Under the pieces are notes generated by a model. The model was not told the DNA's origin. It searched no databases and saw only the letters and a list, made by a program, of their open reading frames with translations. From a virus (taxonomy: Duplodnaviria > Caudoviricetes), in the IMG/VR virus record IMGVR_UViG_3300046003_002370, positions 1-63,602 of that record: a DNA stretch of 63,602 nucleotides; one strand, written 5' to 3'. A program made the translations under genes and the position numbers. Position 1 is the stretch's first letter, and each line of letters starts with the position of its first letter. Of the stretch, positions 1,365-63,284 are shown one piece after another.

Positions 1365-1978
1365 ACATTCGGAATATAGAATTTTTAAACAGAAGAAGAG
1401 TGATATATAAACGCGGTCCTATTAATGATAAACCAACACAGGAGTTTGAATGGGGGAGTTTCTACGAGACTGGAACTACTGAATGTTATGAACTATTCAG
1501 AAGCAAAGCTAAAATTCCCACATACAAATCCTTAAAGTGGCATCTATATGTTTTATGGTATCTTAACCCTTCATTAGATCAAAATGAATTTGAAAATATT
1601 GTAAGACATTTGTGTGATAAGTCAAATGGATTTATTACCTTTAACGTAAGCGAGCAGTTGCTACAAAGTATGATGTATGATGTATCTTTACAAGATCTAG
1701 AATCTCCTCCTCATAATAAGATTAGAAAGATTATCTTTAAGGATAATTGTAAACTAACATTAAGCGAGAAGTTATCTATAGTTGGCAAGATGATTGGTAA
1801 GACTAAGAAAGTTAACGAGTCTGACATTTACGATGCGATGCTATACACGAACGATCTTGGTAAAAAGATTACAATCAAAAGCTTAGCAGAGCACTTTGGT
1901 TGCACGATTAGAACGATACATCGTAATACGAGTAACGAATTAAAAAAAGAAAAAGAATTATTAAATCAAAATTTATGA
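1358..1978 (+). CDS. DNA-binding protein with C-terminal HTH (regulator or replication initiator)
   Basis: C-terminal ITIKSLAEHFGCTIRTIHRN helix-turn-helix. Confidence 0.7.
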   Translation: MSYIRNIEFLNRRRVIYKRGPINDKPTQEFEWGSFYETGTTECYELFRSKAKIPTYKSLKWHLYVLWYLNPSLDQNEFENIVRHLCDKSNGFITFNVSEQLLQSMMYDVSLQDLESPPHNKIRKIIFKDNCKLTLSEKLSIVGKMIGKTKKVNESDIYDAMLYTNDLGKKITIKSLAEHFGCTIRTIHRNTSNELKKEKELLNQNL

Positions 1979-5864: not shown

Positions 5865-7583
5865 ATGCAAATAGAGACAACCGAAATAAATGGTTTTTTA
5901 ATAGACACATTCAATCAATATGGTTTAGAAGAAGGTAAAGCTCAAGGTATTTGTCCATTATGTTCTCCTGATAGAAAACCTAAAAATGAAAAAGCAAAGT
6001 GCGCTTCATACGATTGGACACGTGGAATAGGAACATGCCACAACTGTAGCAAGCCTTTCCAATTACATACTTATAAAAGAAAAGGAGCAAGCGAAAAAGT
6101 ATACGTCAGACCTGAAGTTGCTATACACAATCCGCTTAGCGAAAAAGTTATTGAATGGTTTAAGGGTCGTGGTATATCTGAGCAAACATTAACTGATCTT
6201 AAAGTTACAGAAGGTTCAGAATACATGCCTCAAACGAGTAAGAATGAGAATGTAATCAAATTTAACTATTACATTGGTGATCAATTAATTAACATAAAAA
6301 GCAGAGATGGACGTAAAAACTTCAAACTACATAAAGGCGCTGAAAAAGTATTTTATAATATTAATAGCGTTGTTGGTTTTGAATACTGCATTATTGTTGA
6401 GGGTGAGATGGATGCGTTGGCATTACATGAGGCTGGCGTAACAAATGTTATATCTGTGCCAAATGGCGCAACATTGAATAGTAACAATTTAGAATATCTA
6501 GATAGTTGTATTGATTACTTTGATGATAAAGCAAAAATCATTATTGCTGTAGATTCTGATCCAGCAGGACAAGCATTACAATCTGAATTAGTTAGAAGAC
6601 TAGGATCAGAAACTTGTTATATTGCAACTTTTGATGATTGTAAAGACGCAAATGAATACTTAATTAAATATGGAAAAGAAGCTTTATCGCAAAGAATTTC
6701 AAGAGCCAAACCTGTACCGTTGGAGAACGTTACTACGTTTCGCGATATTGAAGACGAAGTTACAGATTTTGTTAGAAACGGGTTCAAACCAGGTTTCCAG
6801 GTTGGGCTTAATAATTTTGACAGTATTTTTTCTACGTACACTGGTCAGTTCATTACTGTTACCGGTATTCCTAGTTCTGGTAAGTCTGATTTTGTTGATC
6901 AGATGGTTATTGGATACAATGCTAATTACGGTTGGAAGACTGCTTATGCGTCGCCTGAGAATAGTCCTACGTATTTACATGCCCACAAGTTAATGCGTAA
7001 AACATGGCAAGGCATGCCAGGTGTAGAAGACATCAAAACTGATAAGTGGAATCAAGTAGCGGATCATGTTAATGATAATTATTTCTTTATTGACATGGAA
7101 CGTTACACATTAGATTCTGTACTGCGTAAAGGGGCTGAGCTAGTTAAACGTAAAGGTATTAAATGTCTTGTTATAGATCCATTTAACAAGGTTAGAGACA
7201 TGAATGCTGAATCAGCTGACGTTAATGCTTATACATTGGAATACTTGACTAAGATTGAAATCTTTGCTAAGAAGTACGATGTACTGGTAATGATTGTTGC
7301 ACACCCAACTAAAATGTATAAAGATAGTAGTGGTAAAATAGAAGAGCCAACTATGTATAACATTAAAGGTGGTGGCGAATGGTATGATGCTTCTTATCAT
7401 GGTCTATTAGTTCATAGAAACTATGAAGACAAAACTGTTAAAGTGAAAGTACTTAAATGTAAGTTCCAAAACTTAGGAGAGAATGGCGCAGAATGTCATT
7501 TCAAGTGGGATCCAGCTTCTGGTGGATTTATACCTCATGAAGTTGTTAATGCAGGTAATGATAAGATGCCATGGGAAAATTAA
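5865..7583 (+). CDS. Bifunctional primase-helicase (T7 gp4/Twinkle-like)
   Basis: CPLC...CHNC Zn finger, TOPRIM (IVEGEMD, AVDSD, KDANE), Walker A GIPSSGKS, LVIDP, VAHP. Confidence 0.95.
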   Translation: MQIETTEINGFLIDTFNQYGLEEGKAQGICPLCSPDRKPKNEKAKCASYDWTRGIGTCHNCSKPFQLHTYKRKGASEKVYVRPEVAIHNPLSEKVIEWFKGRGISEQTLTDLKVTEGSEYMPQTSKNENVIKFNYYIGDQLINIKSRDGRKNFKLHKGAEKVFYNINSVVGFEYCIIVEGEMDALALHEAGVTNVISVPNGATLNSNNLEYLDSCIDYFDDKAKIIIAVDSDPAGQALQSELVRRLGSETCYIATFDDCKDANEYLIKYGKEALSQRISRAKPVPLENVTTFRDIEDEVTDFVRNGFKPGFQVGLNNFDSIFSTYTGQFITVTGIPSSGKSDFVDQMVIGYNANYGWKTAYASPENSPTYLHAHKLMRKTWQGMPGVEDIKTDKWNQVADHVNDNYFFIDMERYTLDSVLRKGAELVKRKGIKCLVIDPFNKVRDMNAESADVNAYTLEYLTKIEIFAKKYDVLVMIVAHPTKMYKDSSGKIEEPTMYNIKGGGEWYDASYHGLLVHRNYEDKTVKVKVLKCKFQNLGENGAECHFKWDPASGGFIPHEVVNAGNDKMPWEN

Positions 7584-11400: not shown

Positions 11401-13269
11401 ATGAGCTTAACATTAGACAAACAGATTTTATCAGACATTACAGTATACACGAAGTATGCAAAATATTTACCAGTTAAAGAAAGAAGAGAAACCTGGAATG
11501 AATTAGTTACAAGGAACATGGAAATGCATACTACTAAGTTTCCACAATTAAAAGAATCAATTGAACAAATTTATAAGAACTTTGTATTTAATAAAAAAGT
11601 ATTACCGTCGATGCGAAGTCTGCAGTTCGGAGGCAAAGCGATCGAGCTTAATAACGCACGGATTTATAATTGCGCGTTTTTACCTATTGATAGCATACAT
11701 AGTTTTTCTGAGACTATGTTTCTATTGCTTGGCGGTACCGGTGTTGGATATTCGGTACAAAATCATCAAATTGAAAAGTTACCAGAAATTAGAAAACCTA
11801 ATTACGACCGTAAGAAAAGGTATGTAGTACAAGATTCTATTATTGGATGGGCCGATGCAATTAAGGTATTATTCAAATCTTATACTGGCGGTTTAACATC
11901 ACATATAGAATTTGATCTATCTGACATCAGACAAAAAGGAGCGCTATTAGTAACCGCTGGTGGTAAAGCACCTGGGCCAGAACCATTGCGTATCGCTTTA
12001 GTAAAGATAGAAGCTGTATTACGTAATAAGAAAGACAGGACCAAACTGATGGATATTGAGTGCCATGATATTCAATGCCACATTGCCGACTCAGTGTTAG
12101 CTGGCGGTATTAGAAGAGCAGCGATGATTTCACTATTTGATCTTGATAGTACCGCGATGCTTAATTGCAAAGCTGGTAATTGGTGGGAAGAAAATCCACA
12201 AAGAGGTAGATCAAATAACTCAGTTGTTTTGTTAAGGCATAAGATTGACAGAGAAACATTTGATAAAGTATGGGAGCGTATTGAAGCTTCAGGATCTGGT
12301 GAACCTGGTATATACCTTACTAATGACAAAGACTGGGGAACTAATCCTTGTTGTGAAATTGCTTTAAGGCCATATCAGTTTTGTAATTTAACTGAGATTA
12401 ATATGTCGGATATTGAAAGTCAAGAAGATTTTAATGCTAGATCATCGGCCGCCTCGTTCTTAGGTACATTGCAAGCATCGTACTCAGACTTTCATTACTT
12501 GCGTGATATATGGAGAAAGAACACTGAAAAAGATGCATTACTTGGCGTATCAATGACTGGTATTGCCTCTAAATCAAACTTAGAATTAAACTATGAAGAA
12601 GCTGCGAGCCATGTTAAACTCACTAATGTCGAGACCGCCAATGCTCTTGGTATTAACCCTGCTGCTAGGACCACCGCTGTTAAACCTGCAGGAACTACCA
12701 GTTTGGTCCTTGGTACTTCTTCTGGCATACACGCTTGGCACAATGATTATTATATTCGCAGAATGCGATTAGGTAAGAATGAAGCTATATATTCCTATCT
12801 TGCTATACACAATCCAGAATTGTTAGAAGATGAATATTTTAATCCAACATTGCAATCAGTAATTTCTGTGCCTCAAAAAGCTCCAGATGGCGCTATAACA
12901 AGATACGAGTCTACTTTGGATCTATTAGAAAGAGTTAAATTAATTTCTAGAGATTGGGTTAAGAAAGGTCATATTAAAGGTAACAATACACATAACGTAT
13001 CGTGTACCGTATCTGTTCGTGATGATGAATGGAAAGCTATTGGTGATTGGATGTGGGAGAATAAAGATTACTATAATGGATTATCTGTATTGCCATACCA
13101 TGGGGGAACATACAAACAAACACCATTTGAGGATTGTACTAAAGAAGTATACGAACAAATGATGTTAACGTTAAAAGATGTAGATTTATCTAAAGTTGTA
13201 GAAATACAAGATAATACAAACTTTGCTGATTCAGCAGCGTGTGGAGGAGGAAATTGTGAAATTGTATAA
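11401..13269 (+). CDS. nrdJ: Class II (adenosylcobalamin-dependent) ribonucleotide reductase
   Basis: RETW, LPSMR, NCAF, GTGVG, RRAAMI, TNPCCEI, VKPAGT, C-terminal CGGGNCE; no beta-subunit gene. Confidence 0.9.
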   Translation: MSLTLDKQILSDITVYTKYAKYLPVKERRETWNELVTRNMEMHTTKFPQLKESIEQIYKNFVFNKKVLPSMRSLQFGGKAIELNNARIYNCAFLPIDSIHSFSETMFLLLGGTGVGYSVQNHQIEKLPEIRKPNYDRKKRYVVQDSIIGWADAIKVLFKSYTGGLTSHIEFDLSDIRQKGALLVTAGGKAPGPEPLRIALVKIEAVLRNKKDRTKLMDIECHDIQCHIADSVLAGGIRRAAMISLFDLDSTAMLNCKAGNWWEENPQRGRSNNSVVLLRHKIDRETFDKVWERIEASGSGEPGIYLTNDKDWGTNPCCEIALRPYQFCNLTEINMSDIESQEDFNARSSAASFLGTLQASYSDFHYLRDIWRKNTEKDALLGVSMTGIASKSNLELNYEEAASHVKLTNVETANALGINPAARTTAVKPAGTTSLVLGTSSGIHAWHNDYYIRRMRLGKNEAIYSYLAIHNPELLEDEYFNPTLQSVISVPQKAPDGAITRYESTLDLLERVKLISRDWVKKGHIKGNNTHNVSCTVSVRDDEWKAIGDWMWENKDYYNGLSVLPYHGGTYKQTPFEDCTKEVYEQMMLTLKDVDLSKVVEIQDNTNFADSAACGGGNCEIV

Positions 13270-13563: not shown

Positions 13564-16500
13564 TTATTGGTTCTTATTTTTTTCTACTCTGTCCCAAATC
13601 ATTTCTTTCTTAACAGCTGCTTTTTCTTTTGCAGTAGCCAACGAATCAATATATTCGTTCATTTGTTCATCAGTCATTTTATCAATTCTATTCGCTAATG
13701 CTTCTTTTTTAGCTATTCTGTCCTCAGCTGACTTAACATCACTTTCAAACTTCTTAGTTGTTTTAGCTTCTGCTTTTATTCTGTCCTCTTCTTCATTAAC
13801 AACTCCAACATCGTAAGGTTTCCAACCAAGACCTAACGCAAGTTTTTGCCAGGTTTTATTTCTTTCGTCTAACATTTCAGCTACGTTATTTGCTTTGTCA
13901 ACTAATCTATCTAATGGAAAGTTTGTAGTAGCCGCTGTAACTTTACCTGCAATATCATAAGCAGGAGAAGGATTAAATTTTCCGTCTTGCATTAGACTAA
14001 ACCCTCTTTCCTTAATAATATCCTTATCGTATTTAGAAGTGTTCCAAGCAGAGTTTAATTTAGACATTTTAGAACTTATAGGTGGAGAAATACCGGCTGC
14101 AGCAATAATAATTTTAGCAGACTCACCTTTGAATCCTTTTTCTTCTTGTTTTAAGTATTCTAAAATTGTATTTTTTACTGTCGAAACAACAGCTCCGTAT
14201 ATACCAGTACCTCTTAATATGGTGTCTAACATACTGTTTGCAATAGATATATATTTTTTGCCTGCTTTTTCTTTTTGCTTAGCTTTTTCTTTCTCATCTT
14301 CTGGCTCTTCCTCAAAAGCAACTGCAAATAATGCAGACTGTAAAGAAGAAAATATCATACTTTGTATAAATCCATAATACAAGATCTTTGAGATATGTGT
14401 CTTAGCGTCTCCACGTCCATTTATAAGGTCTCTACCAGCCTTTTTCATCAATCTATTATATTGCATAGGCGTATTGCCAAAAGCTAATATAAGACGTCCT
14501 ATTGAGCTCGCTTGTTGTTGAGATATTTTGCTAGGATCTGCTGATTGTTGTGATTCTTCCGATGTTGCTAAGAAATCTTTATATGCTGCGTCTTTTGCAT
14601 CACTCGCGGACATGCCTTGTTTCTCGTAAGTATTAATTCTATTCCTGTAGAATGTAGCTCCGCCTGAACAAATAGCAAAACTATCCGCCATTTGTGTTGG
14701 TGTGTAACCTACTTTTAATAGATATGCTAAAGCTGCCTTTACTTTATTCTTTGAACCTTCAACTGCGTTAGCTAGTTCAGCTTGATCAACATCGGATTTT
14801 AAGCCTGCTCTACGTTCTTTTAATGAATTTGAATTCCATAATTCAGAGAAGTCTTTCCAATATTGTGGTTGGTTAGCAAATGCTTTAGCCGCCATAGCCG
14901 GATTGTTATCTGACCAGTTTATAAAGTTTGTCGATGCAACTAATTGAAGTACAGCAGATCTTGTATTTAAGAACATTATCGCACCAGATGAATTATTCAC
15001 CCAACTAGCCCAAGCGCTTCCAATTTTATCTCCGGATGACCTGTTTGTTCCATTTTTCATTCTAAATAAGGAATCTTCTAATGCACCTCTAAAATCTGTA
15101 CCTCTTGCTGCTTCTATTTTATTTAAGTTTTCAGGTGAAAATATTGCATCTGCATTTTCAACAAACTCTCCTAATATTTGTTTTCTACCACCCTTCTCAG
15201 TAACATTATGCAAATCGGACACAATAGACTCTACATTCCAGTATTCTGTTGGTTTTATCCAACCTTCTAACTGTCCACTTGCAGCCGACAATTTGTTAGC
15301 AAAGTCAGTAAACGCAGGATCATTCTTTATAACATCAACTAGTTTATCAATTTCAGGTCTAGACAAGCCAGGAATTTCAACTCCATTAGTATCCCATAAG
15401 TAAACCCTTACAGCTTGATCGTATGTATTTGTTGTGCCTTCTATTATCTTTGTTAACTTTTTAGCCTCAACAGGGTGTTCCTTTTTTAAGTCTCTATATC
15501 CTTGTTTTATATTTGCTCTAATATTGTTTATTCTTGTAACTCCAGCAGCATAAGGTTTTAATAGATTGTCTTCAAAGAACTTCTTTTGTTCTTCTCCACG
15601 TGTTCCTTTACCCATGAAGTCATACAATAATCCAGCAAAATCCTCAGCAGATGGCGACATAAACACTCTAAACTTGCCTTTACCAGCGCCTATTGTTCTA
15701 GCTGTAATATCTGAGAATTGCTCGTTTACACCAATACCTCTTGTCTCTTCTAATATTTTGTTAAACTCTGTAGATAAAGCTTTACTAAACTGAATTCCAG
15801 ATACATCAGCGACTTTAGTTAAAGGTATAATTTCATACCTACCCTTGCTACTTTTAACTTCTTTGTCAAGCAGCAAATTATAGGTAGAAGCATCAGAAAG
15901 CTTGCTTGCAACATCTTTATTTCTAATTTTAGCTAAAGACAATGGAACTAATTTTGATGTTGAGTTAAATTCTATATAGTCTTTATTATTTATTATTTCT
16001 TCAAGAACACGAGGCATTATATTTATCATAGCGTCTTCATGTTCTACAGTATATTCCGGCTCAATTAAAAGTTTTTCGTAATATTCATTCTTATTGTTTT
16101 CAATTTTTTTACCATTCTCTAAAATAAGGTTTCCTTTTTTGTCTGTTTTATATTTATACTTATTAGTTACTTTATTTAGTCTTTCTTGTTTTTCTACTTC
16201 TGGTAATGTATTTAAAAACTTATCAATAGTCCTTATTGCTGTCGGCGTTAAATTTCCCTTTTTATTTCTAGGCAATTTTCTTAGAATGTTACCTTCCTTA
16301 TTTTTTTTATCAACAACAATGCCAACCATTGCGGACAATGAGCGTATCCCACTAGCAATATTGTTATTACCCGCAAACATTGTATAAACAGTACCTATAC
16401 GAGTGTTTCTTTCTGTTTTTGATATTCCATTTTCATTAACCCATTCTTTAGTTATATTAAAAAATAATTCTGCTTTTAACTTATTTATTTCATTAAATTT

Positions 16501-46189: not shown

Positions 46190-46446
46190 AATATTACGAC
46201 GATGTCCTGTAATTTAATAACTGTATATTTATTCCCATTAAGTTCTATACCATGCCCAGCCGCTTTATCGTAAAGTATTTTATCGCCTACTTTAACAACC
46301 TCTACGCTATCACTTATTGAAACTACTATAGCTTCTTTATATCTTATATTTTCTTTATCCTTGTCTGCTAATAATAATCCACCTTTAGTTTTTTCTATAG
46401 TTAACTTTGCTGGCATTATAATTATATTATTACCTATTGCCTTCAT
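46186..46446 (-). CDS. groES: Co-chaperonin GroES
   Basis: KAIGNNIII...KTKGGLLL...VKVGDKILY...QDIV. Confidence 0.85.
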   Translation of the reverse strand: MKAIGNNIIIMPAKLTIEKTKGGLLLADKDKENIRYKEAIVVSISDSVEVVKVGDKILYDKAAGHGIELNGNKYTVIKLQDIVVIL

Positions 46447-47992
46447 TTGCTCTTAGATTATTTATTACACAATCCGTTGACAATATGGTAATCGCTACTG
46501 ATGCAGCATTTCTTAATGCACTCTTAGTTACTAATAGAGGATCAATAATACCGTGTTCAATCATATTAACCGTTTTACCAGTTATTACGTTTATTCCAAA
46601 ACCAGTTTTAGCTAACACATTAGCATCCACTTCTTCGATACCGGCATTTGCCAATATGACATTGAAAGGAGCCCTAATAGCAATTAGTAATATCTCTTCA
46701 CCTATAGAGTTTGAATTTATATTATAAGAAGCATCTAACAAGGCAATTCCCCCTCCTGGCACAATACCTTCTTTTATTGCAGCCTTTGTGGCACAAATAG
46801 CATCTTCAACTCTGTCTGCTTTTTCTTTTAATTCAACCTCCGAATTAGCTCCTACTTTTACAACTGCTACTTTTGCAGATAACCTAGCTAATCTTCTCTC
46901 TAGTCTAATTACTTCTCCGGGGGCTTTCGTTTCAATTAACTGAGCTTTTATACTATCAATTAATTCTAGTACCTCTGTGTTTGATTCATCAACTTGTAAT
47001 ATGGTTTCTGCGTCGGTTGTAATACTTTTTAAACAAGTTCCTAAATGTTCAACGGATATTAAATCCATATCATCTCCAAGATCTTCGTTTATTATAGTTG
47101 CACCTGTTAATATTGCTAAGTCGTTTAATGTATCTTTTTTATTGATACCGTACGTTGGAGCGTTAATAACATTTACTTTTATATTTCCTTTTACTTTATT
47201 CATTGCCAACGCTGAAAGAACTGTTTGTTCTAAGTCACCAATTATTAGCAATGATTTTTTATTAGTTATTACGTATTCTAATACTGATTGAATTTGTCTT
47301 ATAGTTTCTACTGGAGATTCTAAAATCAATATCAAAGGGTTTTCTAATTCCGCCGTCTTTTTTAACGGGTCTGTAATAAAGCTAGAGTTAACTAATCCTT
47401 TATCATATTGTACACCCTCAATTATTTCTATTTCGGTTTCTTCTGCAGTTGATGATTCCATCATAACTACCCCATTATCACCAACAGCTCTAAAAGCATC
47501 GGCAATAATCTTACCTAGTACTTTGTCATTATTAGTTGAGATAGTAGCAACGTTGTCAATCATATCCCCGCTCACTTCAATCGCAATTGATTCTAGGTAT
47601 TCTATAACCTTATTAACAGCATCTTCAATACCTTTCTTAAGTTCTCTAGAATTAGTGTTATCTTGTACTTTGTAAGCTTCTGCTAGAATAGCTCTAGTCA
47701 ATACTGTTGCTGTAGTGGTGCCATCACCAGCTTCTTCAACTGTATTCCTAGCAGCTTCCTTAAGAAGTCTAGCTCCCATATTTTCTACAGGATCCAATAA
47801 GATTATACTGTTTGCTACAGTAACGCCGTCTTTTGTAATAATAGGTCTACCCATATTATCTTCAAGCATTACACATTTCCCACCAGCGCCTAAGGTTGAA
47901 CTTACGGCATCGGTCAGTTTATTTATTCCTTCAAACACTTTGTCCCTGGCTTCTTTACCAAAACTTAAGTGCTTAACAATTGCATCTGACAT
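46430..47992 (-). CDS. groEL: Chaperonin GroEL
   Basis: ITKDGVTVA, AGDGTTTATVL, EGIVPGGG, GIIDP. Confidence 0.95.
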   Translation of the reverse strand: MSDAIVKHLSFGKEARDKVFEGINKLTDAVSSTLGAGGKCVMLEDNMGRPIITKDGVTVANSIILLDPVENMGARLLKEAARNTVEEAGDGTTTATVLTRAILAEAYKVQDNTNSRELKKGIEDAVNKVIEYLESIAIEVSGDMIDNVATISTNNDKVLGKIIADAFRAVGDNGVVMMESSTAEETEIEIIEGVQYDKGLVNSSFITDPLKKTAELENPLILILESPVETIRQIQSVLEYVITNKKSLLIIGDLEQTVLSALAMNKVKGNIKVNVINAPTYGINKKDTLNDLAILTGATIINEDLGDDMDLISVEHLGTCLKSITTDAETILQVDESNTEVLELIDSIKAQLIETKAPGEVIRLERRLARLSAKVAVVKVGANSEVELKEKADRVEDAICATKAAIKEGIVPGGGIALLDASYNINSNSIGEEILLIAIRAPFNVILANAGIEEVDANVLAKTGFGINVITGKTVNMIEHGIIDPLLVTKSALRNAASVAITILSTDCVINNLRANEGNR

Positions 47993-53738: not shown

Positions 53739-53967
53739 TGTAAGTGAAACTACTTGCCGGTTTACCCGTTGCTTTTGAAGCTCTGTCTTTAGCTCGTTCT
53801 TCCGCAGTCATATTGTTTCGTTTCTTACCCTCTGCTGTTAATGTTTTACCATCTGCTTTAAGTTGTCCTCTATCCTTCAGAATACCAATAGCCATCTCTC
53901 TACTACCTACCTGAGCAGCCAACCTATTTATCAGTTGCCCTTTACCCATAAACTTCTGCGTGGCCAT
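53707..53967 (-). CDS. Basic hypothetical protein
   Basis: 86-aa ORF coupled to its neighbours. Confidence 0.65.
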   Translation of the reverse strand: MATQKFMGKGQLINRLAAQVGSREMAIGILKDRGQLKADGKTLTAEGKKRNNMTAEERAKDRASKATGKPASSFTYNASTNRTKKK

Positions 53968-54722
53968 TAGTCTTTTATTTTATAGTTCTTACCACTCTCT
54001 TTCTTTGTACCCTCACCCTCATTGCCTCTATTCTGTTTCACAGATTCAAACCTACCATCTTCATGGTCGTAATCTTTACCTTTGTTACCAGGGTTTTTAC
54101 GATGCATCCTTTGTGAGTGTGCTTTCTTAGTTCTCCTATCGTCGGATTTAGCATAAGCTAGATCTCTAGCAGCTTTTTTTTTAGCGGCTAAAGGAGATAG
54201 TCTTTGTTTCTGTAAAGGTGATTCCCCTTTCATTTCCGTCATTCTCTCTTTCCTGGTAGCAGCACTCATTCCTGAGGTGCCATACTTTTCAATATTCTTT
54301 TCTAAGTTTTTTTCAGAAGATAAACTACCAATAAAATTATTAACTATATCTTTACCTGCTTCTACAACCCCACTTACAATACCGTGATCAGAATTAAAAC
54401 CACCTACTTCATGGGCAACTCCTAATAAATTAGAACCAACAACACCAATAGCATTCCCCACAACACCTCCACCTAACTTAGCAGATATACCTTTTCTAGT
54501 GTACATACCACCAGCCGCATGGCCCATCTTATCTGAGTCAACCCAATTACCTTTATTCTTGTTAGTATATTTCTCTCTACTACTAGAAGCTTTACCAACT
54601 GGGTTACCTAATGCTCTATTAACACCCGCTTCCATTGTATCAACAGAAGAATAAAAAGGCTGCATGTTTCTGCGGTAAGTATCTATAGGTTTTTCTGATT
54701 GCGATCTTAGTTTAAACGGCAT
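53967..54722 (-). CDS. First gene of the late arm; basic protein with a degenerate HNH-like tail
   Basis: MPFKLR start, ESPLQK, KDYDH...NRG. Confidence 0.6.
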   Translation of the reverse strand: MPFKLRSQSEKPIDTYRRNMQPFYSSVDTMEAGVNRALGNPVGKASSSREKYTNKNKGNWVDSDKMGHAAGGMYTRKGISAKLGGGVVGNAIGVVGSNLLGVAHEVGGFNSDHGIVSGVVEAGKDIVNNFIGSLSSEKNLEKNIEKYGTSGMSAATRKERMTEMKGESPLQKQRLSPLAAKKKAARDLAYAKSDDRRTKKAHSQRMHRKNPGNKGKDYDHEDGRFESVKQNRGNEGEGTKKESGKNYKIKD

Positions 54723-54777: not shown

Positions 54778-54820
54778 GTGACGTTAGCCTACTACTATAT
54801 ATATAACTACCTAATGTCAC
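54778..54820. promoter_or_regulatory. Operator-like inverted repeat, copy 2
   Basis: gtgacgttagcc-N19-acctaatgtcac. Confidence 0.65.
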
Positions 54821-55180
54821 ACTTGTTGTAAAAAAAAATATTGTAAAAAATTTTTTGTAACATATAAATAAGTAAAATGTTATAGCGTTATTTCTACGCT
54901 GCGCCGTATAAAAGGAAATCCGTTTCGTTTACCCCATGGGGGTTCAATCTGGTGATCCGGTTCGAAGGGTCGGGGCCGGCGTCCGTAAACCGTACGATAC
55001 TTTCGGGATTCTGGCTGGTACTATCGCAGCTGCTGTGCCGTGTACGCTGGCGTGTATCTGTGCGTGTGTGTGCCGTGTGTCTCCCGTGTTGTACGATAAT
55101 GTGAAACGAATACGAATACCAGGCAACGTGTAATACGATACGATACGCGGAGCGTAGCGACGCGCTTGTGCGTATAGCAT
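54821..55180. other. Divergent intergenic region with A-tracts and GC-rich short repeats; candidate genome end, pac site or origin
   Basis: Strand switch point; ttgtaaaaaa repeats; TACGA and CGTGT repeats; GC well above the flanks. Confidence 0.5.
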
Positions 55181-55237
55181 TTACAGACCTGGTACGGATG
55201 GTGATTGATAATATATATGTAACAAATAAATAACAAT

Positions 55238-55420
55238 ATGAAAAGACTTAGTGATTTACATCCTCAGACCAGACTGGATCTGATAGAGGAAACCAGATGG
55301 CAATATGGACAGGAGTGGGTAGCTACCTGCATAAAGTATGACTTCCACATATCTTGTATGTGTGACTGGAGTAAGACCAGGCAAGGAGGCGAGTACTGGT
55401 GCTCGGTTGACTGGAGTTAA
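55238..55420 (+). CDS. First early gene, hypothetical
   Basis: Follows class I element 55181 and precedes a terminator. Confidence 0.6.
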   Translation: MKRLSDLHPQTRLDLIEETRWQYGQEWVATCIKYDFHISCMCDWSKTRQGGEYWCSVDWS

Positions 55421-55432
55421 CATAACCTGATC

Positions 55433-55457
55433 AGGTCCCGGAAACGGGATCTCTTTT
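55433..55457 (+). terminator. Rho-independent terminator
   Basis: aggtcccg-gaaa-cgggatct then ctttt. Confidence 0.7.
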
Positions 55458-55903
55458 ACTCTGCTTCATGCGGAATTGGCAGGGCGGAGCATGCGAGCTT
55501 GCGAGCATCGCTCGTGTATAGCACTTACAGACTCAGTACGAATGGTATTTGATAATATATATGAATCAAATGAATAACAACAAACTTAATAAAAAATAAA
55601 TACTTACAAACTTAATACGAAGTGAAATTGATAATATAAGTGTAACAAATAATAACTAATAAATAAATAAAATATGAAAAACTTAAATGAAATTAAAAGT
55701 AGGTTAGTTGATCGTGGATCTTTTGACTTAACCTTAGATCAAGAATTCTCTGGACTAACTAGAGAAGAACAAAATTCAGTCCGGGACTATGTTAGATTTT
55801 ATCTCCTCATGGAATCATAAAATGCTATACAAACTTACAGACTTAATACGACTAGTAATTGATAATATAAATGTAATTAAATAACAAACTAAATATAAAT
55901 AAA

Positions 55904-56314
55904 ATGAACAAATTTAAAAAAGAAGTTGAAGTAGTAGAAGTAGTTGAAGTAACTAAAACTAACAAAGAATTGATCGCTGAAGCCATATCTAAGCTTAGTC
56001 CAGAAGAACTAGCCTTAATATATCCGCCGATGGAACGAGCTAACTTTGTAGTCAGAAAGTCTTGGCTAGGTCGTGGACAAATCATAAGTTTTGTCAACAA
56101 CAAAAATCAAAGAATAACTTATAGTCACGACGAAGTCTTGAAAATAATGTTACCTAAGTTATCAATAATGCCATGTTGGATCAAACGTGAGTACTGGTCA
56201 CAATCAACTGACTTACCAAGTAATGTTAGGAATACAAGTGCGGTCTTGAGTGTTGAACAATTGATCGACGAAACTTCCAAAGAGTTTCAAGATGCTGAGG
56301 CAAGTCTAACATAG
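55904..56314 (+). CDS. Early hypothetical protein
   Basis: 136 aa after class I element 55835. Confidence 0.75.
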   Translation: MNKFKKEVEVVEVVEVTKTNKELIAEAISKLSPEELALIYPPMERANFVVRKSWLGRGQIISFVNNKNQRITYSHDEVLKIMLPKLSIMPCWIKREYWSQSTDLPSNVRNTSAVLSVEQLIDETSKEFQDAEASLT

Positions 56315-56679
56315 ACTGCTTCGGCTCCCCTCGAGGATGCTATACACTTTTACAGACAGAATACGAAGTATAAATGATAATATAAATGTAACTAAAAACA
56401 AATAATATGAAAGAACTAATCAAATACGCTACTGAAATGGCTAGACAATATCCACACAAGTTGGATGAAATAAATGATCTGCTAAGCCTGTGTCATTCTG
56501 AGATCGAAGAAGGCGGATCTGAGACCCACGAAATAGAGTTATGTGCTGAAGATATTAAACAAATATGTGAAGATGATGAATAAAGAACAATTAACCAACC
56601 TGATCGCTTTTGTGAGCCTACTGGTAGCTTACGGAATAATAATGTATTACCTAGGAGCTATAAACGGTTTTTAAAAACA

Positions 56680-56722
56680 GTGACGTTAGCCTATTATTTC
56701 TAGTTTAATAGGCTACTGTCAC
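56680..56722. promoter_or_regulatory. Operator-like inverted repeat, copy 3
   Basis: gtgacgttagcc-N19-ggctactgtcac. Confidence 0.65.
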
Positions 56723-56906
56723 ACTTTTATACGGTTCCTTTTTTTTTAGCGGTGCTATACACGGCCTGACCCTGCAATAAAGTCGGAAGAGTAGACTCCG
56801 TCCTACCTATATTTTAGCTATGCTATACACTTTTCTCCATCGATCACCCTTACAGACTAAATACGATGCCATTTTGATAATAAATATGAATCTAAAAACA
56901 AATAAC

Positions 56907-57182
56907 ATGAAGTACATTAAAGTTCAAAGCGAAGAAATTATCTTTAGTCATGAAAATGACCGCTATATCCTAATTAAGAAAGAAAATGACAAGATTATTG
57001 GGTTAAACTTCTGTCAAGGCGACGATTTTGATTACTTCGTTGAGCACTACATGGAAATTGATCACGACCTAACTAACTTCTATCATGTGGTAAGTAAGTT
57101 TATCGATCTACCTAACGAATATGACTTGATAAATGAGGTAATCTGGGCTTGGTTTCGGTATAAAAACCCCTGGTGTTCGTAG
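56907..57182 (+). CDS. Early hypothetical protein (probable start at MKYIKVQ)
   Basis: Track ORF 56820..57182 spans class I element 56850, so a downstream ATG is more likely. Confidence 0.6.
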   Translation: MKYIKVQSEEIIFSHENDRYILIKKENDKIIGLNFCQGDDFDYFVEHYMEIDHDLTNFYHVVSKFIDLPNEYDLINEVIWAWFRYKNPWCS

Positions 57183-57591
57183 TCCGAAAGCCTTGTAAAC
57201 AAAGGAGTTCGGGGTTATACCTATCTATCTTTTAAAACTAATAAATAATCAACCACCCTTACAAACTTAACACGATGTGGTTTTGATAATATAAATGTAA
57301 CAAATAAAAACTTATACTTATGGAAAATCATTTTGGAATTAGCGTGGAAGAATATTGGTGGAAAACTTTCACTAGCGAGGCTATGGACTCAACAACTACA
57401 AGTACTTATGCTCCGTTGAGCGAACCGTGGTATACGAAAACGATCGAGTAATATCACCTTGTAAACTTAACTTATGAAGAGTTAATTAATAGACTGGGTT
57501 AAAACGATCAAACTAGTTATTACCGTGACAATGAAATTATGGTAGAAATGGGTCAAATAAATGAATAGTAAACAATAAAAACAAAGAAATT

Positions 57592-57777
57592 ATGAAAGAA
57601 TACGAAGTAGAAGTGTGTGAAACACTCATAAGAATAGTAACCGTTGAAGCAATGAATGTGGAGGATGCGATTAAATTTGTAAAGTATGACTATAACAACG
57701 CTGAGTTAGTATTGGATAGCGATGATTTCTTTGATGTAGATTTTAATGTAGTAAATAATGATACCACAATAAAATAG
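57592..57777 (+). CDS. DpnD/PcfM-like small acidic protein
   Basis: YEVEVCETLIRIVTVEA...EDAI...Y...LVLD..DF. Confidence 0.65.
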   Translation: MKEYEVEVCETLIRIVTVEAMNVEDAIKFVKYDYNNAELVLDSDDFFDVDFNVVNNDTTIK

Positions 57778-57846
57778 AAGATTAATTTACAGACAAGACA
57801 CGATACCTAATTGATAATATAAATGTAACAAATAAACAAAAATAAA

Positions 57847-58074
57847 ATGACTAGAAAAGAGTGGTTTGATAACCAAACACCGGAGCTACAAGAAAAGTTC
57901 AAATACAATTGTAATACCATAAATGATGAGCCATGCTTTGATTACTGGATTACTAATGATAACGGTACGGAAGGATTAGGCGGTGCGTTTATATTCCACA
58001 AATCTAGGGAAGGACACACATTTTGGTATGAACTTAATAACCAACTAGAATCAATTCAAAAAAATGGAAAGTGA
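57847..58074 (+). CDS. Early hypothetical protein
   Basis: After class I element 57787; AF...SREG..FW resembles 55238..55420. Confidence 0.65.
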   Translation: MTRKEWFDNQTPELQEKFKYNCNTINDEPCFDYWITNDNGTEGLGGAFIFHKSREGHTFWYELNNQLESIQKNGK

Positions 58075-58157
58075 TTGTTGTGGAGCATACACCAGTATGC
58101 CAGAGTACGGGTTATGCCCTGATTGCATGGAACATTGTGAATTTATAGACTACGAAG

Positions 58158-58376
58158 ATGAAGAATAATATGGATATAACCGAATACACTCGATCAATAA
58201 GCGACGCTAATCAACGTATGTTCAAAGCAAAGTACGGACTAACGGAGTTTCATTCCGATAATGAAAGTAGAGTAAAACTATGGCTGCAACAAATGATAGC
58301 TAAGGAACAAGAAGAAAATAAACTAGACTCAATGGTGTCATTCACCGACAGTATTGGTGGTCTTGATAAGGATTAA
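58158..58376 (+). CDS. Hypothetical protein
   Basis: 72-aa ORF. Confidence 0.55.
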   Translation: MKNNMDITEYTRSISDANQRMFKAKYGLTEFHSDNESRVKLWLQQMIAKEQEENKLDSMVSFTDSIGGLDKD

Positions 58377-58618
58377 CCTATACAGACACAATACGATTTT
58401 GAATTGATAATATATGTGTAACAAACAAATACAAATTTATGAAAACTATTAAAAAATTAAAGACTAGAGAATTGATTGTTGACGGCGTGCTATACACACC
58501 TTATATGATCGGCGAATTGCCACCAAGTTTTGGCTACAAATTATCAACAGACCGTGAGGCTGAAGGAAAATCAGAATGGTTTAATTACAAAGGTTTAACA
58601 TATTTAAAAAAGTAAAAG

Positions 58619-58903
58619 ATGAAAAAAATACTAAAAAGGTTAGATTTCGAAGAAGTAACTGAGGTTACTTATATTACCGACAGCAGCATAGTAGCTATTA
58701 AATGGAGCAATAAAAAAGTATCTGTTGTAGTACAGTGTCCTGATGAATTATTTTATGGTTGCGATGGTTATCTTAGTTCGCTTAGTTCCTGGAGTAGAAA
58801 ATCTAAGAAGGAATATGTTGAGTCTGCTCTTGACCAGTTGGGTGTTAAAGCTTTTGAATTTAACTCTTATAAAGAATTATACGAATGGTTAGCAACACAG
58901 TAA
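58619..58903 (+). CDS. Hypothetical protein
   Basis: 94-aa ORF. Confidence 0.65.
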   Translation: MKKILKRLDFEEVTEVTYITDSSIVAIKWSNKKVSVVVQCPDELFYGCDGYLSSLSSWSRKSKKEYVESALDQLGVKAFEFNSYKELYEWLATQ

Positions 58904-59032
58904 TATCAGACGAAGAAAAGTTTTCAAAGTGGATGATCGAAGTAGTTAAGAGCGTCCACTATGCAAACAACGACGACATGGCAAATGTCTATAACCGAGT
59001 AATAGATAACAACAACCGCTTAATAATCGCTT

Positions 59033-59269
59033 ATGGAACTCTCTGAACTAAAAAGTAAATGGATCAAAATGCGTAATAGTAAAATTCCACTTAATATCCA
59101 GTTTATACACGAATATGCTATACACAAAGGTATGGTTGTAACACCTGAAATAATAAGTGTTGTTGCACAGTTTTATCCAGCGGACCTAATGACAGAGCAC
59201 TTCGATCGGGAGTTTGATTTAACAAGAGTATACGATAAAAATAATAACTTTATAAAAATAGTAGAGTAA
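59033..59269 (+). CDS. Hypothetical protein
   Basis: 78-aa ORF. Confidence 0.65.
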   Translation: MELSELKSKWIKMRNSKIPLNIQFIHEYAIHKGMVVTPEIISVVAQFYPADLMTEHFDREFDLTRVYDKNNNFIKIVE

Positions 59270-59523
59270 TGACAAAACAATTAGAATTACCTAAATGGTT
59301 TCAAGGTCAAACATATCCTTGCGGTGACGAAGTAACTAATCCATTCAGTGGTGAAAGTTGCGTGTTAAACAACTTAGAATTAAGCATGTACGATTTTATT
59401 ATGGGGTGTAACTATCTAATGGAACGTGGTAAAGGATCGTCAAAAATGGTCGGTGAGTTTCACAAAGGATTAACATGGTTCAGGAAAGCAAACCCCATAG
59501 CGTACATGACGCTGCTAGATTAG
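59269..59523 (+). CDS. Hypothetical protein (…AYMTLLD type)
   Basis: 84-aa ORF, VTNPFSGE...ELSMYDFIMG. Confidence 0.7.
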   Translation: MTKQLELPKWFQGQTYPCGDEVTNPFSGESCVLNNLELSMYDFIMGCNYLMERGKGSSKMVGEFHKGLTWFRKANPIAYMTLLD

Positions 59524-59583
59524 TCTACAGACACAATACGAAATGATGTTGATAATATAAATGTAACAAATAAATAATATACA

Positions 59584-60189
59584 ATGAAATTACTTACACA
59601 AAACAGCAAACTGAAAAAAACTAGTAAAGCCTTAAATCTTAGAGTATTTAACTTTGGCATTCCAGCTTATAAATCGGTAACAGGTAAACTAACTTGTCCG
59701 TTTGCTGATGAGTGTATAAAGTTTTGTTATGCCCGCAAGGGTGCCTATATATGGGGTAATGTAAAACCTGCATTTGAGAGTCGATATGAGTTATCTAAAT
59801 CGCCTTTGTTTGTTGAGGAGATGAATAAAGAAATCAAAAGAGTACGCGCTGATTATGTCAGAGTACACGATTCCGGTGATTATTATAGTACTGAGTACTT
59901 GAATAAATGGTTGGAGATTGCTATACACAATCCCGATGTCAGGTTTTACAGTTACACTAACTGCGTTGAAATGCTTAAAAATGCCGATCTACCGGATAAT
60001 TACGATATTATATTCAGTGATTCTGGTAAACAAAAGCACTTGATCGATCAAACAGTTGATCGTCACACAAGAATATTCAGTAATAGTGCTGACTTAATTA
60101 AGTTTGGCTACAAAGATACAAGTGAAATTGATCTTTACGCTACTAAATGGTTTAATGATACAATAAAAGTAGGTTTAATAATACATTAA
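59584..60189 (+). CDS. GP88-like protein (radical-SAM-related fold)
   Basis: LLTQNSKL, TCP...C..FCYA, VRVHDSGDY, FYSYT. Confidence 0.8.
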   Translation: MKLLTQNSKLKKTSKALNLRVFNFGIPAYKSVTGKLTCPFADECIKFCYARKGAYIWGNVKPAFESRYELSKSPLFVEEMNKEIKRVRADYVRVHDSGDYYSTEYLNKWLEIAIHNPDVRFYSYTNCVEMLKNADLPDNYDIIFSDSGKQKHLIDQTVDRHTRIFSNSADLIKFGYKDTSEIDLYATKWFNDTIKVGLIIH

Positions 60190-60356
60190 GATATGACACC
60201 AAAAGAAAAAGCAGAGGAATTAGTAATTGAAATGAAAATAGATTATACAGTGCCTTATATTGTGGCCCAACAATGCGCATTAATAGCAGTTGATGAATTG
60301 ATAAAAGAAACTGGTAAAAAATATTGGTATGATGTTAAACGAGAAATAAAGGAATT

Positions 60357-60641
60357 ATGAGTACAACATTTGGAATATTAAGAATTGAAGTCGATCACGA
60401 TAAATTAGTAGACGAAGACGGCGAACTATTAGAATATATATCTGAAAATATATTTGAACCTATATTTTTTAGATCGATGAACAACTGCAGATGGCTAAAT
60501 AGTATTGCCAGGCATATAAGTGATGATACTAAAGTGTATGCTTTAGATAATTCGGCGCAAGGCGTATATACAATTAAGGATTTGAAAGATCTTTTAGAAC
60601 GAGACAAGCAGTCTTACAGACACAATACGATTAACAATTGA
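60357..60641 (+). CDS. Hypothetical protein
   Basis: 94-aa ORF. Confidence 0.6.
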   Translation: MSTTFGILRIEVDHDKLVDEDGELLEYISENIFEPIFFRSMNNCRWLNSIARHISDDTKVYALDNSAQGVYTIKDLKDLLERDKQSYRHNTINN

Positions 60642-60674
60642 TAATATAAATGTAACCAATTAAATATAAACAAA

Positions 60675-61052
60675 ATGAAAGAATTAGTAAACAATATTTT
60701 TGACAAAGAAATCACATCAGCATTAGATGGTTTCCCAAGTGTGTATTCAAAAGATGATTTGATTTGCGTAGTAAACCGTATTCGTCTTGAAATAAACGAG
60801 TTAGAGCAGCCAAAGCCTGAGCTTGATAAAGCATTATTGAGGAAGGCAATTGAAGAAGCGGTAGCTCAATTTACTAGACAGTTAGAACGTAATGACAATG
60901 AGTACATTGATTACGGCAGCGCGGAGTTCAATATTGAATATAATAATGTGCTTAACCTAGAGAGCATTGATCTTAATATAGATAATGTTACAGATTCGCT
61001 TGAGGGTACATTAGAAGAAGTATTCTACGAAATTTTAGATATAAAAGAATAA
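60675..61052 (+). CDS. Acidic hypothetical protein
   Basis: 125 aa after class I element 60614. Confidence 0.7.
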   Translation: MKELVNNIFDKEITSALDGFPSVYSKDDLICVVNRIRLEINELEQPKPELDKALLRKAIEEAVAQFTRQLERNDNEYIDYGSAEFNIEYNNVLNLESIDLNIDNVTDSLEGTLEEVFYEILDIKE

Positions 61053-61073
61053 TTAACAATTAAATTAAATATT

Positions 61074-61301
61074 ATGACAAATGTAAATTTAGCGGAAACG
61101 CTACAGGTTGAAAGTAGTGCTATCTTTGAAGTAACTTACTATCCAAACGTCGAAAGATTATTTGTGTTCTTTAAGAACGGTAGAGAGTATGAGTACTTAA
61201 ATGTTCCTAATCATGTTATGAGCGGCTTAAGAGACGCATCGTCTAAAGGTAAATTCCTTAACAAGTATGTATTAGCTCAATACCGCTTTAAAAAAGTATA
61301 A
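61074..61301 (+). CDS. KTSC domain protein
   Basis: VESSAI..V.Y....L.V.F.NG..YEY..VP......L..ASSKGKFLN. Confidence 0.85.
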   Translation: MTNVNLAETLQVESSAIFEVTYYPNVERLFVFFKNGREYEYLNVPNHVMSGLRDASSKGKFLNKYVLAQYRFKKV

Positions 61302-61404
61302 GTTGCTATACACGCCGACTCAGGGTGCAGTGAGTTCGTTAAACAAGAACTGTACAAATAGCTAAGCTGTGTAAAGCGGTTGACGATTAATCAATTAGAA
61401 GCTA

Positions 61405-61473
61405 AGTCAGGTGGCAGATTGGTATGTATTGGATTTTAATCCTAACAAGCAGGTTCGAATCCTGCCCTGACTA
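61405..61473 (+). tRNA. tRNA-like element with aberrant anticodon arm (identity unclear)
   Basis: agtcagg/cctgact acceptor stem, TGG D-loop, gcagg-ttcgaat-cctgc T arm; irregular ggattttaatcc anticodon arm. Confidence 0.65.
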
Positions 61474-61487
61474 CTAAATTTAACATC

Positions 61488-61649
61488 ATGAGTAGAACAG
61501 TAAAACAACAGTACAGAAAGTCAAGAAGATTTGATAGATCTTGTAGGAATAGTGGATCATGCTCTTATTGCAGAGGCAATAGATTACACAGTTCTAACAC
61601 AAGACTACAAGCATCGTCTTACAGACTAAACACGAACAATGATCGATAA
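61488..61649 (+). CDS. Small Cys/Arg-rich protein (53 aa)
   Basis: MSRT...DRSCRNSGSCSYCRGNR. Confidence 0.55.
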   Translation: MSRTVKQQYRKSRRFDRSCRNSGSCSYCRGNRLHSSNTRLQASSYRLNTNNDR

Positions 61650-61675
61650 TATTAATGTAACTAAAACAAATCAAT

Positions 61676-62173
61676 ATGAATATATTTTATTTAGACAAAG
61701 ACCCTGATAAAGCAGCTTCAATGATGTACAATAAGCACGTTGTAAAAATGATCTTAGAATCCGCACAGTTATTATGTACTGCACATATTATGTTAGATGG
61801 CGATGATGCTGATGTACCATACAAAATGACTCACAAAAATCATCCGTCAGCTATATGGGCGCGTGAGTCTGCGGATAATTATGCATGGTTATACTTCCAC
61901 ATGCTAGCGCTTGGCGAAGAGTATACTAAACGTTATGGTAAAAAACATTTAACTATAACAAAGTGTGAAGAATGTTTAGGCAATATACCAGGTGGTATGT
62001 TAAACTTAGGTTCAACACCAATGCCTCAATGCATGCCTGATGAATACAAAGTTCCTGGTGATAGTGTAACAGCTTACTGGAATTATTACGAAGCTGAAAA
62101 AATTAAAGTACGAAATAGTAACGAAGAAATAAGAACAAGACCTAAGCAATATGAAAGCAACAGTAGAATTTAA
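61676..62173 (+). CDS. Pyrimidine-dimer DNA glycosylase/endonuclease V-like family protein
   Basis: MNIFYLD...KHVVKMILESAQLL...HKNHPSAIW...EEYTKRYGK.H...PQCMPDEYK. Confidence 0.75.
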   Translation: MNIFYLDKDPDKAASMMYNKHVVKMILESAQLLCTAHIMLDGDDADVPYKMTHKNHPSAIWARESADNYAWLYFHMLALGEEYTKRYGKKHLTITKCEECLGNIPGGMLNLGSTPMPQCMPDEYKVPGDSVTAYWNYYEAEKIKVRNSNEEIRTRPKQYESNSRI

Positions 62174-62393
62174 TTTACCAGAAGATAGTTATGATTATGC
62201 TATACACAATATGGCATCTGATCTGGCAGGTTTATTGTGGGAATTAACTCATAATGCAAAAAAGCAATGCGAGCAAGAAGTTGATAATATTGATCCTATT
62301 AATCAAAATATTTATGACGGCATAGACATAGTATTTGATAAAATAAACAAATTATTAACTGAATATAATATAGACCCAGATAAATTAGGATAA
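62151..62393 (+). CDS. Hypothetical protein (MKATVEFNLPED type)
   Basis: 80-aa ORF. Confidence 0.7.
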   Translation: MKATVEFNLPEDSYDYAIHNMASDLAGLLWELTHNAKKQCEQEVDNIDPINQNIYDGIDIVFDKINKLLTEYNIDPDKLG

Positions 62394-62394
62394 T

Positions 62395-62610
62395 ATGGAA
62401 AATGATGTTTTTGATAAAGATTATTTAAACGATTTAGCAAGTAATAAAGTTGGATCTAAATTGCAATGTTTATTGCGTGAGGATATGGCTAAGTATCTTG
62501 ATTTGGGCATAAACTGTGACACAGTAGAAGACATGATTGCATCACACAAAAGAGAAGTAAAAGTATGGAGTTATATATTCCAATTAATAGAACAAGATAA
62601 TAAATTATGA
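62395..62610 (+). CDS. Hypothetical protein
   Basis: 71-aa ORF. Confidence 0.65.
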   Translation: MENDVFDKDYLNDLASNKVGSKLQCLLREDMAKYLDLGINCDTVEDMIASHKREVKVWSYIFQLIEQDNKL

Positions 62611-63284
62611 AAATATGGCATATATCAGATACTCATACGTATCACGACTTACTAACTATTCCTCAAGGAATTGATATGGTAATACATTCTGGAGATTGTA
62701 GTAATCCTCGTGATCCATATACTAATGAACCAGAGGTTAGAGATTTTATTGATTGGTATAAAAAGTTACCTATCAAATATAAAATATATGTAGCGGGCAA
62801 TCATGATACAAGCATTGAAAAAGGTTTAATAAATAAAGTAGATTTTAAAGAAGAAAATATTGTATATTTAGAAAATGAATATGTAACTATTGAAGGTATT
62901 AAAATCTTTGGCTCACCTCATACGCCACAGTTTGGTCAATGGGCATTTATGAAAGGGCGCCCTAAGCTTGATAGATTCTGGAAACTTGCTATACACAAAC
63001 CTTGTGATATTATTGTTACTCACGGGCCTCCTAAAGGCGTTTTAGACAAGTCTTTCGATCGTGATGACAATATGGAATCTTGCGGGGATAAGTCTTTATT
63101 AAATTTAGTATTAGAGATGCAACCTGCTTATATGTGCTTTGGTCACATACACAACTGTAAAGATATTATTAATGCAGGAATGTTAAAGTTAAGTGCTTAT
63201 GATACGTGGTTTAGTAATGGATCAGTAGTAACTGATGGTAAATTTGGAAAATTAACTAGTAATGGTAATATATTTGAAATATGA
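62607..63284 (+). CDS. Calcineurin-like metallophosphoesterase
   Basis: SDTH, HSGD, AGNHD, THGPP, FGHIH. Confidence 0.9.
   Translation: MKIWHISDTHTYHDLLTIPQGIDMVIHSGDCSNPRDPYTNEPEVRDFIDWYKKLPIKYKIYVAGNHDTSIEKGLINKVDFKEENIVYLENEYVTIEGIKIFGSPHTPQFGQWAFMKGRPKLDRFWKLAIHKPCDIIVTHGPPKGVLDKSFDRDDNMESCGDKSLLNLVLEMQPAYMCFGHIHNCKDIINAGMLKLSAYDTWFSNGSVVTDGKFGKLTSNGNIFEI

Follow-up and report, generated by a model that had tools for sequence, protein, structure and literature searches.

A strand-polarised ten-nucleotide word in the early arm of an uncultured phage family, a candidate site of sequence-specific DNA nicking

In T5, localized strand-specific nicks of the phage DNA have been on record since the 1960s; they were described later in phiKMV- and tf-like phages, and their role is given as unexplained in the report on the Pseudomonas phage tf (PMC3517423). 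For tf itself (record HE611333), that report maps 14 nicks by experiment at 5'-TACT/RTGMC-3', every one on the strand that codes for the early arm, the top strand, with 12 of the 14 in the early arm and many inside genes; as far as its account goes, only three near-miss sequences occur and none is nicked, in a genome of two-arm convergent layout with promoters grouped at the arm start (PMC3517423). Putative single-chain interruption (sci) sites are noted there for LUZ24/PaP3, and the T5 nicking genes, sciA and sciB, are mapped to the late region (PMC3517423), while our search of the literature for a known nickase in systems of this kind found nothing relevant. Here we examine the 10-mer TGCTATACAC in a 63,602-nt virus genome (Duplodnaviria; Caudoviricetes; IMG/VR record IMGVR_UViG_3300046003_002370, positions 1 to 63,602, referred to below as the window). 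By analogy, we consider the word to be, on balance, probably recognised by a DNA-breaking system of the tf/T5 kind, encoded by the phage and specific for sequence and strand; site-specific nicking fits best because of the tf analogy together with the contigs of related phages that end inside the word.

The likeness to tf extends to several levels. In both phages an asymmetric, exact word of 9-10 nt is present in ~14 copies with hardly any near-misses, follows the early-arm coding strand with many intragenic copies, and is densest near the arm start and evenly spaced; recomputed from the tf sites, the spacing there is likewise even (coefficient of variation, CV, 0.37 vs 0.87, p 0.002) and the sites thin with distance. 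Both genomes have two convergent arms in a podovirus-type layout, with the promoters concentrated where the arm starts, and the break, mapped in tf and proposed here, falls after base 4, in T-R-C-T / R-T-R. As in the known nick systems, TGCTATACAC is a short asymmetric word with few near-misses, and its sites lie unevenly along the genome, densest in the early half. Nevertheless, the word is a different one, and tf keeps its sites on one strand with two of them in the late arm, whereas TGCTATACAC inverts in the control region, forms promoter-side arrays and spares the late arm; the nicks of tf are proven, those of the present phages proposed, and a hidden Markov model of our candidate enzyme finds no homologue in tf. 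T5/BF23 and phiKMV, as described in the tf report, have strand-specific, localized and unevenly distributed breaks in virion DNA, of the kind proposed here, but the T5 sites, major and minor ones, follow a looser consensus, the phiKMV-like phages have no more than 3-4 sites, whose consensus is longer and split (PMC3517423), and the hosts of both belong to other phyla. Because of the inverted orientation, the promoter-side arrays and the spared late arm, we regard the system as a putative new variant rather than a proven member of this class.

Distribution of the word in the genome and the family

The record represents a whole phage genome of 63.6 kb (99% complete by CheckV), in which a + strand early arm runs from ~55.18 kb over the record end to 13.5 kb and a - strand structural, or late, arm occupies 13.5-55.1 kb. 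Within its 63,602 bases TGCTATACAC occurs 13 times exactly, 12 times on the + and once on the - strand, and ranks first among the genome's 10-mers. In 100 dinucleotide-preserving shuffles the mean was 0.15 copies and the maximum 3, so that none of the 100 reached 13, and an order-3 Markov model expects 0.078 copies per strand. Allowing one mismatch adds just TGCTATACGC at 55170(-) and TGCTATACAA at 55823(+), giving 15 sites vs 4.5 expected; near-miss copies are thus almost absent, and an 8-mer core, TGCTATAC, is common to all 15. No copy lies at 13.5-55.1 kb, and along the early arm the sites thin out with distance. An earlier note on this DNA, made from the letters alone, had described the 13 copies, an expectation of well under one, the empty structural arm and the declining density, and our recount agrees with it at every position. 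It had also set a flip of orientation at ~55.5 kb as the starting point: the flip is real, but the + strand arm begins at ~55181 and not at 55500, and two inverted copies stand upstream of + strand promoters, outside the - strand genes.

The promoters in question are 13 tripartite, promoter-like elements of ~40 bp, here called class I, with the pattern CTTACAGAC..AATACGA..TTGATAATATAAATGTAAC, which fits CAGACA, a 17-nt spacer and GATAAT. All are on the + strand, each 20-35 nt ahead of an ATG, and 12 of them lie at 55181..61680 (+), the 13th being at ~5072-5125. In the control region 1-2 nt separate the word, in one orientation or the other, from the -35-like block of the first promoters downstream of it, and the four copies said by the earlier note to abut class I elements indeed do so. 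The outermost, the inverted one-mismatch copy TGCTATACGC (55170..55179, -), is 1 nt from the first class I promoter; the inverted exact copy at 55514..55523 (-) precedes the class I promoter at 55525 by 1 nt; and the direct copies TGCTATACAA, with one mismatch (55823..55832, +), and 56338..56347 (+), exact, each lie 2 nt upstream of one. In relatives the word forms double or triple tandem arrays with a period of 11-13 bp, by GC-rich segments and, in either orientation, directly upstream of early promoters, and this arrangement argues for protein binding to the word as double-stranded DNA.

The outermost copy borders a GC/GT-rich, repeat-rich non-coding region between the two arms (54880..55169, neither strand assigned) with tacgatacg and gtgtg runs, which may hold an origin or a genome terminus; 20 of 62 family contigs end within 1 kb of the small gene discussed below, in or beside the matching GC/GT-rich region. 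A long hairpin (GTGACGTTAGCC ... GGCTA.TGTCAC) is present in two copies, at 54778-54822 and 56680-56722, each followed by T or A runs; similar long hairpins occur in relatives, and by its sequence the element looks like a terminator. An Rfam scan of the genome returned a tRNA only, and no match at 54.5-57.5 kb.

Further along the early arm, all on the + strand, the exact copies fall both between and within genes. An intergenic copy follows the long hairpin and its T-run (56753..56762), and a copy in the Leu-Tyr-Thr (LYT) frame lies 19 nt upstream of a class I promoter (56821..56830). Intragenic copies in the LYT frame are found in a 58-aa open reading frame (ORF; 58488..58497) and a 206-aa ORF (1839..1848), the latter matching a site exactly inside which a relative's contig, L012, starts. 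The Ala-Ile-His (AIH) frame is used in a 78-aa ORF (59116..59125), a GP88-family gene (59919..59928), an 80-aa ORF (62198..62207), a metallophosphoesterase gene (62987..62996), the hypervariable linker of the primase-helicase (6119..6128) and the ribonucleotide reductase gene (12801..12810), so that the two reading frames are distributed over the genes as first noted. The remaining intergenic copy (61304..61313) lies 92 nt upstream of a suppressor-type tRNA. A longer string, TGCTATACACAATCC (peptide AIHNP), recurs at 6119, 12801 and 59919, in three unrelated genes; a motif longer than TGCTATACAC is unsupported by the family-wide flank logo.

To place the word in the wider family, we retrieved 293 IMG/VR stretches with related primases and kept 80 loci (1.37 Mb), where 180 copies share the strand of the primase and 34 lie on the opposite one. 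The word is present in 28 of 30 whole records, all 30 of which together hold one occurrence of the reversed control word, and is absent from 12 of 25 further records, a set chosen mostly for loci with few or no copies. A second set of 80 loci was anchored on the small gene that comes first in the late arm. Their early side (318 kb) contains 217 copies, 146 co-oriented with the early genes and 71 inverted, every inverted one at 0.4-3.5 kb from the small gene, and their late side contains 0 copies in 793 kb. In oriented and anchored genomes, co-oriented copies extend from ~0.3 to 20 kb along the early arm and inverted ones stay within ~1.3 kb of the anchor gene. Rare late-arm copies occur in seven genomes, one each in the giant gene, in the sense direction and 1.9-2.8 kb from its 3' end, and three genomes have one antisense copy each in an early ORF of ~280 aa. 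Two assemblies of about twice the genome length, the 129.5-kb record G055 and the 117-kb contig C7 of G056, repeat the word pattern and have the appearance of concatemer-like or circular read-through products.

All word-poor genomes belong to one clade, in which no other polarised word was found to take its place and no conservation was seen upstream of the promoters. Two candidates for such a word were dropped: GGCAACGTCGGGAT in G020 is really a tail-fibre coding repeat, and a gene duplication partly accounts for GGATTTAGCA in G016. Class I elements take a variant form in the word-free clade, TTACAAACAAAATA ... GGATAATATA.

Among 251 family copies, 175 are sense within ORFs, 48 intergenic and 28 antisense, and the 175 sense copies use all three frames (116, 49 and 10). 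In the primase, the word sits in the hypervariable linker in some lineages, and elsewhere a change from ENVIKFN to ENAIHFN creates it; at one column of the 206-aa ORF, 11 of 63 sequences have the exact word and 12 of 63 a T-ending word, and the others encode something else. Furthermore, in 11 of 12 genomes the sites between 1.5 and 12 kb are spaced more regularly than expected by chance (CV 0.22-0.54 vs 0.65-0.87 for the null). As judged from these alignments, the word is selected as DNA, at the cost of amino-acid replacements. A directional DNA-level signal, under selection and proper to the early arm, was the central proposal of the earlier note and it stands; its interpretation of that signal is partly supported, as two of the functions it suggested, among which site-specific nicking did not figure, fare poorly below.

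Contig ends inside the word and a candidate nickase

Further indication of a break comes from the ends of assembled contigs. When 167 distinct ends of family contigs were compared, 10 began with ATACAC or ATACGC, right after the TGCT of the word, where ~0.02 such ends would be expected (an estimate from ~15 sites per 2 x 63.6 kb possible end positions). The 10 ends come from 10 different datasets. Seven lie at the outermost inverted copy, with the contig extending into the late arm; that of L276 lies at another inverted copy, ~2.9 kb from the small gene; and those of L012 and L017 lie at copies that share the orientation of the early genes, the L012 end corresponding to site 1839 in the 206-aa ORF. 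A 14-mer variant of the site is carried by 10 family contigs, of which three start exactly there, one of these three being new and again at the outermost inverted copy. In total, 11 contigs from different assemblies start at the fifth base of the word (TGCT^ATACAC or TGCT^ATACGC), and a scan of 24 loci with the sigma factor gave no further end of this kind. AGCA is absent from the common first four letters of the 167 ends. We take the ends as indirect evidence, drawn from sequence assemblies, of a physical break.

In the mechanism that we favour, the strand carrying the word would be broken between TGCT and ATACAC, with localized single-strand interruptions as the outcome, as in tf/LUZ24, phiKMV and T5. 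The 3'-OH side of the nick would be extended during library work or amplification and the displaced 5' end would stay as a terminus, so that only the 5'-ATACAC side should appear as a contig end. Every 3'-OH would then point away from the control region, along the direction of transcription.

The enzyme may be a small basic protein whose gene opens the late arm. In the window it corresponds to the C-terminal 91 aa (53970..54242, -) of ORF 53967-54722 (-), where it is fused in frame to a glycine-rich N-terminal part of 160 aa; it stands alone in 15 relatives, and in relatives generally the free-standing protein has 78-96 aa and is the first gene of the late arm. It surfaced only in tblastn searches with its conserved C-terminal part. 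By tblastn it is present in 13 of 14 word-rich genomes, the contig of the 14th ending at that very spot, and also in G021 (8-mer core count 11 + 5). G016, with 4 core copies, and G017, with 3, have diverged forms of it, and no tblastn match was found in seven word-poor genomes (G020, G025, G028, G030, G037, G040 and G042). A gene-content correlation over 27 genomes yielded no perfectly co-occurring cluster. The small protein, which co-occurs with the word and has its gene next to the control region, is our candidate for an enzyme that would nick the word.

Its alignment shows D57 and N71 invariant and H60 nearly so. An AlphaFold (AF2) model (mean predicted local distance difference test score, pLDDT, 73.6) has a basic helical hairpin, then a beta-hairpin and a short helix, with strands at 56-59 and 64-67 and a helix at 68-72 (beta-beta-alpha). 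The predicted beta-hairpin and helix, with D, H and N at the expected places, resemble the HNH enzyme of GVE2 (PDB 5h0o), but the small protein has no zinc-binding cysteine. It is possibly a minimal His-Me (HNH-like) nuclease. The family has more than 5,700 metagenomic matches, all unnamed, and tblastn found no match to it in phage records. Other metagenomic members have long C-terminal extensions with no known domain, and in the fused longer forms no Pfam domain was detected apart from one sub-threshold DUF4134 row, in P0124.

Several considerations weigh against nicking, and against this protein as its agent. Nicks in T5, tf and phiKMV are confined to a single strand; here the word is not, with 12 of 13 exact copies on one strand in the window and 146 co-oriented against 71 inverted copies in the 80 anchored loci; orientation flips at the control region, and the few late-arm copies of relatives follow the gene strand. 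Tandem arrays beside early promoters resemble an operator more than a nick site. The contig ends are a proxy taken from assemblies and not a direct observation of nicks, and the corresponding control on tf relatives was uninformative, as it comprised four loci, one of them on a metagenome contig. Eight of the 11 ends fall at one site, the outermost inverted copy, which could instead be a genome terminus. The word also partly resembles what we take to be a common library-adapter end; the contigs keep the adapter-like half of the word, which argues against trimming, if not against every kind of artefact. As for the protein, its co-occurrence with the word comes close to one evolutionary event, because the word-poor genomes form a single clade, and the correlation is correspondingly weak. 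No Pfam or PDB sequence match was found for it, and a Foldseek search against the PDB returned nothing at E <= 0.001; the best VIA row, 5h0o_A, a phage HNH nicking enzyme, is not significant (Z 3.4, root-mean-square deviation 5.9, 65 aligned), and the nearest named Atlas clusters, both HNH (0.92 and 0.91), serve as leads only. Assignment of the model to the nucleases is therefore weak.

Competing explanations

The next-ranking reading, which we consider unlikely but well worth entertaining, is that of an operator: a phage regulator would bind the asymmetric word, as single copies or tandem arrays, at ~-45 of the first early promoters and, with no cleavage, turn early transcription on or off, while copies inside genes would be extra binding sites oriented to let transcription pass. 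Its main point is the promoter-side arrangement with the protein binding argued from it, that is, the word 1-2 nt from the class I -35-like block in either orientation and the arrays of 11-13 bp period in relatives; the small basic protein that co-occurs with the word, given its predicted helical hairpin, would suit a regulator as well. Such binding would nevertheless leave unexplained the contigs that start exactly inside the word, those at early-arm copies included. Regulator sites, moreover, are usually degenerate, whereas near-misses are almost absent here, and most copies lie far from promoters, evenly spaced and strictly co-oriented. Nicking and operator function could go together if the promoter arrays were bound by the nickase as well.

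We find it improbable that the word acts in transcription through the non-template strand, either as a -10-only promoter for the phage sigma factor or as an ops-like pause or reloading site. Co-orientation with the genes on both arms and the presence of a sigma-70-family factor speak for such a role, and even spacing would suit reloading. Yet the flanks of the 251 copies show no conservation, with no -35/-10 partner or start-site context, and the copies are not concentrated just upstream of ORF starts (p = 0.11 vs random), so that neither a sigma-70-type nor a -10-only promoter is indicated; the antitermination site suggested by the earlier note is left unsupported by the same two observations, the unconserved flanks and the lack of bias to gene starts. 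The sigma gene, besides, is present also in the word-free clade, and the inverted copies stand upstream of promoters, outside known transcripts.

A replication signal appears quite improbable too. On that account the control region would hold origin iterons, and the copies along the early arm would be polar sites for helicase loading, priming or fork arrest. Orientation does diverge from the repeat-rich non-coding region, which puts the word always on the lagging-strand template of outgoing forks, and a primase-helicase, Erf and an exonuclease are encoded, with no DNA polymerase among the 37 of 92 ORFs scanned. A leftward fork would, however, cross the 41-kb late arm, which has zero sites, and the primase-helicase is equally conserved in the word-free clade. 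We know of no precedent for a 10-nt priming site.

A host-read polar word that would protect or orient entering DNA, of the Chi/KOPS type named in the earlier note, would suit the strand polarity and a density highest at one arm end. It is scarcely credible, given that 300 sampled Flavobacteriaceae genomes have 0-9 copies each, a background level like that of the reversed control word (a negative that holds for the genomes searched), that most or all word copies in four metagenome-assembled genomes (MAGs) with phage contigs are on those contigs, including, in the two MAGs with the highest counts, all 12 in the centre MAG, G056 (on two phage-like contigs), and 7 of 12 in G059 (on a 63-kb phage contig), and that the phage has its own Erf and exonuclease.

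Genome setting and implications

The + strand arm contains many small genes and encodes a sigma-70-family factor, Erf, a PDDEXK exonuclease, the primase-helicase, thymidylate synthase, MazG, a resolvase-like protein and ribonucleotide reductase. In the late arm, terminase, portal and structural proteins accompany GroEL, a match to the crAss-type muzzle protein and an ORF of 2785 aa; annotation covered 37 of the 92 called ORFs. The sigma-70-family factor (2288-3052, +) matches phrog_351 at 2e-20, with Pfam regions 2 and 4 slightly below their cut-offs, and is kept in 15 of 15 relatives compared. The tRNA at 61405-61474 (+) has the anticodon TTA, which would read the stop codon TAA (tRNA-Stop in ARAGORN; Rfam 48.3 bits); recoding is not evident, the window's long ORFs being open under table 11. 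A full-length GroEL/Cpn60 is encoded at 46430-47992 (-; Pfam 1.1e-60), and its relatives also occur on phage-like contigs binned into MAGs from very different taxa.

The 2785-aa ORF (13564-21921, -) follows the muzzle-like gene, which is the slot of the crAss-like virion RNA polymerase. It has no DxDxD-type/DFDxD aspartate motif and gave no Pfam, PHROG or tblastn match, and the only match to a crAss family is that of the muzzle protein (2.1e-9); crAss-like membership with a virion RNA polymerase was set aside for want of the catalytic motif. TGCTATACAC as a promoter of such a polymerase was dropped as well, because the giant ORF has no RNA polymerase motif; in the account of the phi14:2 preprint, no motif is common to virion-RNA-polymerase promoters (10.1101/2020.03.07.982082). 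No related phage record was found at the DNA level. By primase, Cellulophaga phage phi10:1 (42.6% identity) comes closest among cultured relatives, which makes a Flavobacteriia host likely.

If TGCTATACAC is a nick site, localized nicks would extend to a large, abundant and uncultured phage family that probably infects Flavobacteriia. The family would contribute new kinds of evidence to the field, namely sites under selection, as seen in amino-acid replacement, even spacing and family-wide occurrence, a word-free sister clade and a tiny candidate enzyme, and it hints that nick sites may be detectable in metagenomes by contig ends alone. We go further with a proposal that is distinctly speculative and rather unlikely as a whole: that programmed nicks made by a new family of tiny His-Me nucleases would provide distributed 3'-OH entry points for the host polymerase and the phage's own Erf and exonuclease. 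The synthesis that the nicks prime would then run outward from the control region, as transcription does, in a phage with no DNA polymerase among its scanned ORFs, and the turnover of sites, their even spacing and the word-free clade would make the sixty-year-old question of what such nicks are for directly testable.

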